64,000 nt of DNA from Salinispira sp. GTDB lineage: Bacteria; Spirochaetota; Spirochaetia; DSM-27196; Salinispiraceae. A program made the position numbers and the translations under genes. The notes beneath the pieces were generated by a model that saw only the letters and a list, made by a program, of their open reading frames with translations, did no database searches and was not told where the DNA came from. Positions 29,254 through 31,921 of this stretch are shown here, one piece after another. The DNA is taken from contig OZ271918.1 of assembly GCA_965602015.1 (NCBI GenBank), forward strand, positions 2,464,001 to 2,528,000, read 5' to 3'. The first letter of the stretch is position 1. Each line of letters begins with the position of its first letter.

Positions 29254-29545
29254 AGACGCCTTACATGACCTTAGGCATTCCGCCTCACAAGGAGCTTATC
29301 GGCGCAGCTTTGTAAGCGCCGAGTGGGATAAAACATTTTTTAGGATAGGATACAACCTCTTCAGCAAGTCCATTAGCGGCTACGCCGCACTCCTGGTGAC
29401 CTTAATAATTGCTCTCGTTAGCGACACGATTATCGAAGTTAACTCAAAATCCAGATACTAAAGCACAAGAAGTAATCTTCTGTTATTATCATCTTCGTGC
29501 ATCGAGGGGCAGGGATGGATGGGATTTCTATAGAGCATGTGGCTG

Positions 29546-29560
29546 AAGATAGTGTATCTT
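29546..29560. promoter_or_regulatory. Palindrome upstream of the TA operon (putative autoregulatory operator)
   Basis: AAGATA-GTG-TATCTT, 20 nt upstream of the antitoxin ATG. Confidence 0.45.
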
Positions 29561-29580
29561 AATCATAAAGGTGAGATCAA

Positions 29581-29811
29581 ATGAACGAAAGAATCGAAAT
29601 AAACCCTGTCATTTGCCATGGGAAACCGGTCATACGGGGAACACGTGTTCTCGTTTCAAATATTCTAGGCGAATTAGCCAGTGGTGCCGTTTTCGATGCA
29701 GTTATTGAGATTTATCCAAATATCAATGTAGAAGATATTCTTGCTGCACTTGAATTTTCCAGTGAACTTACGCAATTTGATACCATTTCTTATCAAGACT
29801 TGGCAGTATGA
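29581..29811 (+). CDS. DUF433-family putative antitoxin
   Basis: RIEINP.ICHGKPVIRGTRV.V..IL...YP.I..EDI.AAL is the typical DUF433 pattern; 76 aa. Confidence 0.92.
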   Translation: MNERIEINPVICHGKPVIRGTRVLVSNILGELASGAVFDAVIEIYPNINVEDILAALEFSSELTQFDTISYQDLAV

Positions 29812-30161
29812 AGTTTTTTCTTCATGAGAATTTTCCCAAATCAGCTATTCAGTTCCTGAATGAGCGAGGGCATAAATCCTTCGATATTCGTGGGACAGAG
29901 AATGAAGGCCTTGATGATTTCTCTATCTTTCAACTGGCGAAGGAAAAGTCAGCAATTTTCCTCACTTGTGACCGGGACTTTTTTCATACCATCCACCTGA
30001 CTGAAAAACCGCATTATGGAATCATTGTCATAACTCTTCGAAAGCCAAATGGAAAGGCTATAATCGATAAGCTGCTGTGGGTCATGGATCGCCTTGACCA
30101 TTTCAGCTTTACTGACGAATGCATTCTCTTGACAGATAATAATTGCACCATTTATCGCTAA
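29808..30161 (+). CDS. DUF5615 PIN-like (VapC45-like) putative toxin
   Basis: MKFFL(H)EN.P, G.DD..I..LA, LTCDRDF, GII motifs. ATGA overlap with the DUF433 gene. Confidence 0.88.
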   Translation: MKFFLHENFPKSAIQFLNERGHKSFDIRGTENEGLDDFSIFQLAKEKSAIFLTCDRDFFHTIHLTEKPHYGIIVITLRKPNGKAIIDKLLWVMDRLDHFSFTDECILLTDNNCTIYR

Positions 30162-30169
30162 CAGAAAGC

Positions 30170-30334
30170 AACCGCAGTCGTGCGGGAGCGCGGATTAGAA
30201 CCCGACGACCACGATTTCCTCGCCGGTCGACTTTTTATCGCTCCCCGTGCGGGAGCGCGGATTAAAACATGTACTGCGTTTTCTATACAAGCCCGCTATT
30301 AGATCGCTCCCTGTGGGAAAGCGATTTTTGCTGC
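30170..30334 (+). CRISPR. Degenerate orphan mini-array: three type I-C-like repeats, two spacers
   Basis: R2 30237-30268 ATCGCTCCCCGTGCGGGAGCGCGGATTAAAAC (32 nt, 7-bp stem CGCTCCC/GGGAGCG, 11-nt tail). R1 30170-30201 matches the last 23 nt of R2 at 22/23. R3 from 30303 matches the first 21 nt at 17/21. Spacers 30202-30236 (35 nt) and 30269-30302 (34 nt). No cas gene in the window. Confidence 0.8.
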
Positions 30335-30413
30335 TCTGTAGTTTTACTGGCGTAATCCAACCGTTCAGATATCTTAGCAACAGTTTTTATTCTGTTTATG
30401 GATTCCATAAATT

Positions 30414-31764
30414 GATCACGTCCAATAATGTTCGCAATTTAGAAAAGTAAAAGGAGCCACAATTCTCTCCGAAGGTTAAGTAGCGATACACAACCAGAAG
30501 GAGTAAGTAATCATGGCCCCAAAAAACTCTACCGCAGATTTCAAGAATCTGCTATCCCAATTCACCGGTGAATCCGATCCCTTGTTTGAGATGCTCAAAT
30601 GGACAACAGAGCAGCTTATGAAAATCGAAGTCGAATCCAAGGTCGGTGCCCCCAAAGGTCAGCACTCCCACAACCGGGCTACTCACTTTTCCGGAACACG
30701 GGTTCGCCGTTTTGATACCCGATTAGGTACCATGTATCTGGTGGTTCCAAAGCTCCGAAAGGGAGGGTATATCCCCTTCTTTGTCACCGAGAAGCGCCGG
30801 TCTGAGCAGGCGCTTCTTCAGGTTGTCCAGGAAGCATTCATTAACGGCGTTTCAACCCGGAAGATTGATCGTCTGGCAAAACAGCTGGGAATCGAGAATA
30901 TTTCCGCAAGCCAGGTTTCAGAAATCAACAAAGGTCTTGATGAACAGGTTGATACATTTCGCAATCGCCCCCTTGAAGCGGAGTACCCAGTAATCTGGAT
31001 AGACGCCCTGTATGAAAAGATCCGGGATGACGGGAGAGTCTACAATCATGCGGTTATGGTCGTGTGCGGCCTCAACAGGGCTGGAGAACGGGAAATCCTG
31101 GCCATAGAGCCCATGGATGCTGAAAATGAAGACAATTACCGGTTCCTGATCCAGAGGTTGAAGGAGCGTGGCCTTCGGTCCGTGTGGCTTGTGGTCTCAG
31201 ATGCGCATCTGGGATTGAAGAATGCTATCCAGAAAGAATTCCTTGGTTCCAGCTGGCAACGCTGCAAAGTACATTTCATGCGGAACGTGTTGGCAAAAGT
31301 GAGAGCCAAACACAAAGAGCATGTTGCCGCCCGTATCAAACATATCTGGCTTCAACCGGATGCCGGTACCGCACGGGAATATGCCAAACAGGTGATGGAT
31401 GATCTGGAATCGCAATTCCCTGAGGCGGTGGAAATCCTGGATAACGGACTTGAAGACTCACTCCAGTTCTATGAATTTCCAAAGCTCGATCATCGGAAGG
31501 TCGCTTCGACAAACATGCTGGAAAGACTGAACCGGGAGATCCGTCGGCGGTCGAAAGTCGTCGGGATTTTCCCATCTCAGGATTCTTACCTGAGATTGGT
31601 GACCTGTTTCCTGATTGAATACACGGAAGACTGGACAGCCGGCAAGGCCTATATTAAAAAGGAAATACTGGATGAGCAACGAGATCTCATCCCGAAAATA
31701 GCCGCTTAACCCGCTGGAGGAAGCTGGCTCCTACATGAAATTGCGAACTAATTTGGACACCATC
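30414..31764 (+). mobile_element. IS256-family insertion sequence, 1351 bp
   Basis: Imperfect terminal IRs GATCACGTCCAATAATGTTCGCAATTT / (rc) GATGGTGTCCAAATTAGTTCGCAATTT. 8-bp TSD CATAAATT at 30406-30413 and 31765-31772. Confidence 0.93.
30513..31709 (+). CDS. IS256-family DDE transposase
   Basis: GVSTRK, IDALYEK.R, VSDAH.GL, WQRCKVHF.RN, STNMLERLNREIRRR. Confidence 0.95.
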   Translation: MAPKNSTADFKNLLSQFTGESDPLFEMLKWTTEQLMKIEVESKVGAPKGQHSHNRATHFSGTRVRRFDTRLGTMYLVVPKLRKGGYIPFFVTEKRRSEQALLQVVQEAFINGVSTRKIDRLAKQLGIENISASQVSEINKGLDEQVDTFRNRPLEAEYPVIWIDALYEKIRDDGRVYNHAVMVVCGLNRAGEREILAIEPMDAENEDNYRFLIQRLKERGLRSVWLVVSDAHLGLKNAIQKEFLGSSWQRCKVHFMRNVLAKVRAKHKEHVAARIKHIWLQPDAGTAREYAKQVMDDLESQFPEAVEILDNGLEDSLQFYEFPKLDHRKVASTNMLERLNREIRRRSKVVGIFPSQDSYLRLVTCFLIEYTEDWTAGKAYIKKEILDEQRDLIPKIAA

Positions 31765-31921
31765 CATAAATTTACTGGAAATCCTTGGCCAAAGTAGAAT
31801 TTCTATAGATGCGATGTAATGCGAAAATGACACTTATTCATATTTATCCGAATTCTTTCTAAGAGCATACCATCAGCAGAGAACTCCTTTTGACCTAGGC
31901 TGCCCCGGTATATGACCCGTC

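Follow-up and report, generated by a model that had tools for sequence, protein, structure and literature searches.

Short CRISPR arrays that lie far from cas genes have been described as degrading remnants, with 23% of arrays counted as distant and 12% as orphan (PMC7145637). Terminal repeats have been described as polymorphic at the 3' end and resistant to recombinational loss (PMC8047081). Repeats that serve as Cas5c substrates consist of a 7-bp stem, a 5-nt loop and an 11-nt tail and are cut after base 21, and the same account holds the loss of the repeat 5' end to be tolerated (PMC8524198). Regulatory elements of the CreA/CreR type have been reported for type I-C (10.1101/2023.03.10.532045), and those with three repeats are rare, with 12 cases in 10.1101/2023.03.03.530964. 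Here we compare with these systems a small repeat unit in the chromosome of a Salinispira sp., which is probably the decayed trailer of a type I-C array that has been lost.

Architecture of the unit and its type I-C assignment

The window is a 64,000-nt stretch of contig OZ271918.1 (positions 2,464,001 to 2,528,000, forward strand), and positions given without a contig refer to it. On its plus strand, a unit of three repeats and two spacers occupies 30170-30334, with a spacing of 67 nt from R1 to R2 and of 66 nt from R2 to R3 (Table 1). The coordinates, sequences and spacings proposed in an earlier note, which had been made from the sequence alone, were right.

Table 1. Features of the repeat unit and its surroundings (window positions)
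Feature	Position	Strand	Description
Low-GC insertion	29254-31921		Between a TPR gene and converging NUDIX-aroB genes
DUF433 (VapB-like) antitoxin gene	29581-29811	+	PF04255, E 5.6e-20; inside the low-GC insertion
DUF5615 PIN-like bacterial toxin gene	29808-30161	+	Ends 8 nt ahead of R1
R1	30170-30201	+	Type I-C repeat with 5' end lost or replaced; repeat-derived part 30179-30201
Spacer 1 (S1), 35 nt	30202-30236	+	Weak hairpin fold; 3' end of five T
R2	30237-30268	+	Near-intact type I-C repeat; single change, in the 3' handle
Spacer 2 (S2), 34 nt	30269-30302	+	No target found
R3	30303-30334	+	Degenerate terminal (trailer) repeat
IS256-family element	30414-31764	+	Transposase at 30513-31709

From repeat position 10 on, R1 and R2 share 22 of 23 bases, for which base composition gives a probability of about 1e-12 at one offset, and R3 agrees with R2 at 17 of the first 21 bases (about 1e-7 at one offset). 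Because of these probabilities, and of the identity of R2 to a genuine type I-C repeat at 31 of 32 positions, the repeats are not a product of chance. Contigs from runs X1-X3 span the unit without differences and at single-copy depth, which makes a collapsed assembly unlikely; the runs come from one sample, possibly the source of the window itself, and as non-independent data they argue against assembly error only. Apart from R1, no further copy of R2 with up to 9 mismatches was found in the whole 3.87-Mb genome (G000), and a repeat profile run across it returned R2 and R1 only, with no second I-C array. Among 269 related spacers, 225 are 34 or 35 nt long, as S2 and S1 are. Rfam returned a weak CRISPR-DR9 match only (E 4.8), and a finder that needs three exact 12-mers missed the unit, bearing out the expectation that strict array finders could overlook it.

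The repeat had been called type I-C, and this assignment holds, the 31 of 32 positions being shared with the repeat of the I-C systems of G002 (same genus) and G005 (same family). G002 carries 35 copies of a repeat one base off R2, in an array preceded by WYL-cas3-cas5d-cas8c-cas7-cas4-cas1-cas2 and typed I-C. G005 carries 75 exact copies of a repeat one base off R2 on one contig, and cas8c is present in both genomes. In a DNA search of 41 genomes this repeat was matched in 4 of the 40 relatives, and a broader repeat pattern was matched in 15 of 99 genomes of the order. In addition to its I-C cas1, G002 has a second cas1 (G002:C1:1088423-1089178).

The two outer repeats are worn at opposite ends. 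Compared with the repeat of the relatives, R1 agrees at 5 of the 12 bases at its 5' end and at 9 of the 11 at its 3' end, which supports the view that it retains the 3' handle part. R3 shares 11 of the first 12 bases and 4 of the last 11, so that, as had also been proposed, only its hairpin half is left. R2 folds into a 7-bp stem with a 5-nt loop and an 11-nt tail. In R1 the 5' stem arm is gone and the canonical stem cannot form; the alternative 5-bp hairpin read there earlier (CCGCA-GTCG-TGCGG, at 30172-30185) does fold (z -2.2, with 5 of 200 shuffles equally good) and stops five bases short of the usual cut site. Normal processing at R1 is doubtful, since the stem at whose base Cas5c/d cuts is missing, although losing the 5' end of a repeat can be tolerated (PMC8524198). 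The hairpin of R3 is weaker than the canonical one (-9.2 versus -12.8 kcal/mol), and 14 of 200 shuffles fold equally well. Folding in context was dropped as an argument: the R2 stem reached a probability of at most 0.07 in 6 of 7 folding windows, and canonical three-repeat windows were also low (median 0.19, with 30 of 101 at or below 0.07).

Trailer ends of related arrays were readable in nine cases; the count leaves out seven ends (G031, G059:C225, G010, G076, G088, G009 and G005:C9) at which the contig ended at the last repeat or within about 100 nt of it. In six of the nine, the 5' part of the last repeat is preserved and its 3' handle lost, with 7 to 12 of the 12 5' bases retained (G045 is the weakest, with 7) and 2 to 5 of the 11 handle bases. 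The other three comprise one repeat worn on both sides, one mildly changed and one end without a degenerate repeat. The shape of R3 is the usual trailer-end form of the relatives. The second-last repeat carries a handle change at three of the nine ends, and in G005 this change is the same G-to-A as in R2.

Genomic setting and the search for cognate genes

The insertion that holds the unit has a GC content of 0.33-0.44, repeats and insertion sequence excluded, compared with 0.58-0.63 in the flanking genes. G002 lacks it: at the syntenic site the stop codons of the TPR and aroB genes are 26 nt apart, and the I-C locus of G002 lies about 250 kb from that site. In G001 the TPR gene is followed by other sequence, and the contig ends about 300 nt further on. 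The earlier note had considered that related strains might show a long canonical array at this position; none was seen, the G002 site being empty.

The toxin gene next to R1 encodes His at position 6, where all 30 other aligned homologues have Asp (31 of 98 matches were used in the alignment); Asp is also found at this position in 156 of 161 toxin-homologue loci. A conserved active-site acidic residue at this position of the toxin is described in PMC5499597 and PMC3834315. The toxin profile matched none of the solved structures searched, and conservation and the literature are the grounds for the role given to residue 6. The toxin is likely to be inactive, as His6 replaces the conserved acidic residue. 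These 161 loci, 1.0 Mb in all and many of them on short contigs, contain no array, with a lone 10-mismatch match as the closest hit, and a single-protein scan of genome contigs gave no result. The absence of arrays from the homologue loci indicates that pair and repeats are not a travelling cassette in the loci sampled. In G005 a BrnT/BrnA-like toxin-antitoxin pair lies directly behind an I-C array trailer (L024:18010-18560, G005:C60), and genes of toxin-antitoxin type adjoin I-C array ends in G000, G005 and G053.

The IS256 element inserted 79 nt behind R3, and the 8-bp target duplication on its two sides, at 30406-30413 and 31765-31772, is intact; four more full-length copies are present in the genome, at 99.9-100% identity. 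As it sits on the trailer side with its duplication intact, it does not explain the missing upstream part of the unit and was rejected as the cause of a deletion. At 31854-31909 there is an element of about 55 nt, to which six other stretches of the genome are related at 76-83% identity; it may be the terminus of a further insertion sequence or belong to a small family of repeats. Past the TPR stop codon we noted the word LHDLRHSA (29259-29285), whose HDLRHS core we take to be an integrase-like motif, and, at 29300-29335, a 7-bp hairpin with GGATAAAAC and then a T run behind it. The integrase reading of that word was abandoned, with no Pfam match up to E 10. The hairpin with GGATAAAAC and its T run bears a faint likeness to a repeat end, without support from the repeat profile. 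An attC-like reading of 30156-30201 was rejected by eye as too short.

The genome is a single contig, 99.67% complete, and its only CRISPR-Cas system is of type I-F, whose cas1 is the sole cas1. The I-F arrays count 7 and 60 repeats of an unrelated 28-nt sequence and lie 1.2 Mb from the unit. Family searches for Cas8c, Cas7 and Cas5d across the whole genome gave no match; in the controls, Cas8c was detected in G002 and G005, Cas7 in G002, and Cas5d in 5 of 14 control genomes. Seven Cas proteins of G002, searched by tblastn, reached E 0.06 at best, and the WYL regulator E 0.009. A profile built from 11 related leaders gave a best E of 9.8 in this genome, and E 1e-13 or better in three leave-out controls. 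The descriptions of the unit as leader-less and Cas-less were thus both confirmed, the second genome-wide for type I-C. The I-F system is complete (G000:C1:1267301-1285560); its arrays, about 2.4 kb apart with transposase-like open reading frames between them, are apparently one array split by an insertion element.

Origin of the unit and competing explanations

We consider the unit to be a non-functional, decayed trailer remnant of a lost type I-C array, with a probability of roughly 0.8. The trailer end of a deleted array had been the fallback of the earlier note, and it gains from the likeness of R3 to the terminal repeats of relatives and from the absence of I-C genes and leader. The identity of the repeat and the empty G002 site belong to the same body of observation, as does a parallel case in G053, a genome of the same order. 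There, at G053:C4:64622-64770 (L243:7622-7770), the last repeat of an I-E array is a chimera with an I-C 3' part, and behind it come a 34-nt spacer, an I-C repeat of full length, a second spacer of 33 nt and, finally, a decayed repeat. The layout of cut, full and decayed repeat with two spacers is that of the unit studied here, and the spacers are unrelated. The cas1 and cas6 genes upstream are I-E, and it appears that I-E replaced I-C by joining inside a repeat. Cas8c and Cas7 were not found in G053, an absence that is less sure because this genome is 91% complete. A gene of HEPN/nucleotidyltransferase type follows the decayed I-C repeat of G053.

The order of events, the way in which the array broke and the lack of function are our reconstruction. 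An I-C array would once have run into the unit from upstream, either at this site or in the donor of the low-GC insertion. A deletion or replacement may then have broken the hairpin of the third-last repeat, now R1, and brought in the end of the toxin-antitoxin operon. The last units would have survived because divergent trailer repeats recombine poorly. In the absence of Cas5d or Cascade no crRNA would arise, and the unit would now drift, read at most as the 3' end of the toxin-antitoxin mRNA. Some points weigh against the remnant reading. Since none of the relatives carries a long array here, the deletion is not directly seen, and the former locus is unmarked, with no cas or leader fragment left. 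The asymmetry of the repeats is also that of CreA/CreR RNAs as described in 10.1101/2023.03.10.532045. Finally, S1 has two features that are rare in real spacers, its five-T end (0 of 269) and a 26-of-30 match to the genome itself.

It is unlikely that the unit was a mini-array of the CreA/CreR type, guiding Cascade to repress the toxin-antitoxin operon or a cas promoter, stranded when cas was lost and followed by inactivation of the toxin. The adjoining toxin with His for the conserved Asp suits this history, as does the occurrence of such elements in type I-C. The pattern of repeat decay is also the same, the first repeat keeping the 5' handle and the last the hairpin side (10.1101/2023.03.10.532045). 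However, that shape is not specific to CreA/CreR, because trailer remnants show it too, and its recurrence in G053, where an I-E array is fused to an I-C tail, means that a regulatory RNA cannot be deduced from shape alone. Upstream of the toxin-antitoxin operon and in three cas intergenic stretches of G002, TTN-PAM sites matched at three seed bases at most. Upstream of the resident I-F cas1, the best seed site matches at 6 counted positions (7 bases), and the best likeness of S2 to the region upstream of the toxin-antitoxin pair is equalled by 56 of 269 unrelated spacers. Moreover, the pair has its own protein antitoxin, the 161 loci of toxin homologues hold no array, the unit is not beside cognate cas genes, and regulatory mini-arrays of three repeats are rare.

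S1 raises a further reading, in which it was taken from the cell's own PKD-domain lipoprotein gene and the unit is a self-targeting scar that drove the loss of I-C, came to form the 3' end of the toxin-antitoxin mRNA and continues to act as a tripwire guide against a re-acquired I-C Cascade. The first 30 nt of S1 match that gene at 26 positions in the coding sense, near its 3' end (G000:C1:2669491-2669520); all four differences are transitions, and the last five bases of S1 are unmatched. The score of this match, 22, was reached by none of 262 shuffles and none of 127 real I-C spacers, of which the best scored 21, twice. With a 270-nt query blastn gave it E 0.78, and two spacers were tested. 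The PAM of type I-C is TTC. The PAM position of the match reads CCC, with TTC three bases further up. We put true descent of S1 from the lipoprotein gene at about one in three, and the full scenario of scar and tripwire as quite improbable. A self-targeting S1 that preceded the loss of the system would still fit the history of a remnant, and if the descent is real, the unit would preserve a small natural trace of CRISPR autoimmunity ahead of that loss. The gene has a paralogue: the lipoproteins at G000:C1:2669257-2670684 and 87152-88519 share 42% identity, and the first has five PKD domains and the spacer-1 look-alike. In the 98 other genomes of the order, neither lipoprotein has a counterpart matching at E 1e-30 or better.

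Searches with the spacers found no target with a 5'-TTC PAM, which the earlier note had proposed to look for, in the host genome, in phage records or in viral contigs. No TTN site matching 10 seed bases exists in the whole genome, in scans that also took in its own I-F spacers. Phage records gave partial matches of 21-22 nt only, at E 1 or worse, and five exact-pattern scans of viral contigs gave none. No match to either spacer came up in the 98 other genomes of the order, all of them from other species. In the plasmid search they were included only as part of a longer query.

That a mobile element built the unit, as a mini-array or an anti-CRISPR RNA, and carried it in with the low-GC insertion strikes us as very unlikely. 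The unit does lie inside an insertion missing from G002, and viral contigs do carry solitary, near-identical I-C repeats, at four loci. Those viral units, however, are one clean repeat each and not a trailer of three. No phage or plasmid genes were recognised in the insertion, similarity to plasmid DNA was limited to two repeat-spacer-repeat matches, and neither phage records nor viral contigs held a spacer target. A promoter of its own is unsupported, with promoter-like sites at chance level (one upstream of the unit versus 2.3 expected). In two of the viral contigs, L205 and L207, a sigma-70-like promoter was seen by eye before the solitary repeat, and the sequence downstream differs between these related phages; in L206 the repeat lies between two terminase-like open reading frames.

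It is highly doubtful that the remnant was kept as a transcription terminator of the toxin-antitoxin operon, with the hairpins of S1 and R3 each followed by T, although such a use would not conflict with a remnant origin. The toxin stop codon lies 8 nt ahead of the unit, and a 3' run of five T as in S1 was seen in none of 269 real spacers; fold and T5 run occurred together in one. The T run that had been read behind the R3 hairpin is there, but the likeness to an intrinsic terminator did not hold up, as a terminator scan of the plus strand called neither the S1 nor the R3 hairpin. By a terminator formula both hairpins score below zero (-10.8 at best and -16.3), and folds as good as that of S1 occur in 44 of the 269 real spacers. 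The remaining idea, advanced in the earlier note, is that of a functional small-RNA cassette served by a type I-C Cascade from another locus; it is very unlikely and largely refuted by the cas searches: R2 is near-canonical with its 7-bp stem, R1 keeps most of its handle (9 of 11 bases) and the S2 unit might in principle be open to cleavage by a Cas5d, but no cas5d, cas7 or cas8c was found in a nearly complete one-contig genome (the very absence named in that note as grounds for refutation), the resident I-F system uses an unrelated repeat, there is no leader or promoter signal above chance, and no target combining PAM and seed was found.

Comparison with described systems

As a remnant the unit carries little weight in itself. 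It indicates a past encounter of the lineage, which now relies on I-F, with an I-C system resembling the one in its relatives. It also matters for annotation, in that a cut first repeat, a full middle one and a decayed last one mimic a design of the CreA/CreR type.

With the CreA/CreR elements of 10.1101/2023.03.10.532045 and 10.1101/2023.03.03.530964, as they are presented there, the unit shares leaderless, degenerate repeats and an adjoining toxin gene. It differs from them in that there is no adjoining cas locus, cognate Cascade or PAM-flanked promoter match, in its two spacers instead of one, and in not being conserved in the relatives searched. The viral solitary repeats and the Racr and Cracr RNAs (PMC10651486, 10.1101/2024.10.29.618823) are, by these accounts, likewise Cas-less I-C repeat units, carried by viruses, and the solitary I-C repeats of the viral contigs L204-L207 are near-identical to the repeat family of R2. 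Unlike these, the unit is chromosomal, with no clear promoter, no recognisable prophage and no I-C system to inhibit.

The orphan and distant arrays described in PMC7145637 are, like the unit, short and far from any cas cluster of their own type; the unit differs from that description in having only three repeats, one of them intact, and in sharing its genome with non-cognate (I-F) cas genes. The last comparison is with the I-C trailer ends of G002 and G005. Here the upstream array, leader and cas operon are gone and a break in the hairpin has cut the first repeat, whereas the repeat itself (31 of 32 positions), the spacers of 34-35 nt, the last repeat worn at its 3' side and the handle change in the second-last are features that the unit and those trailer ends have in common.
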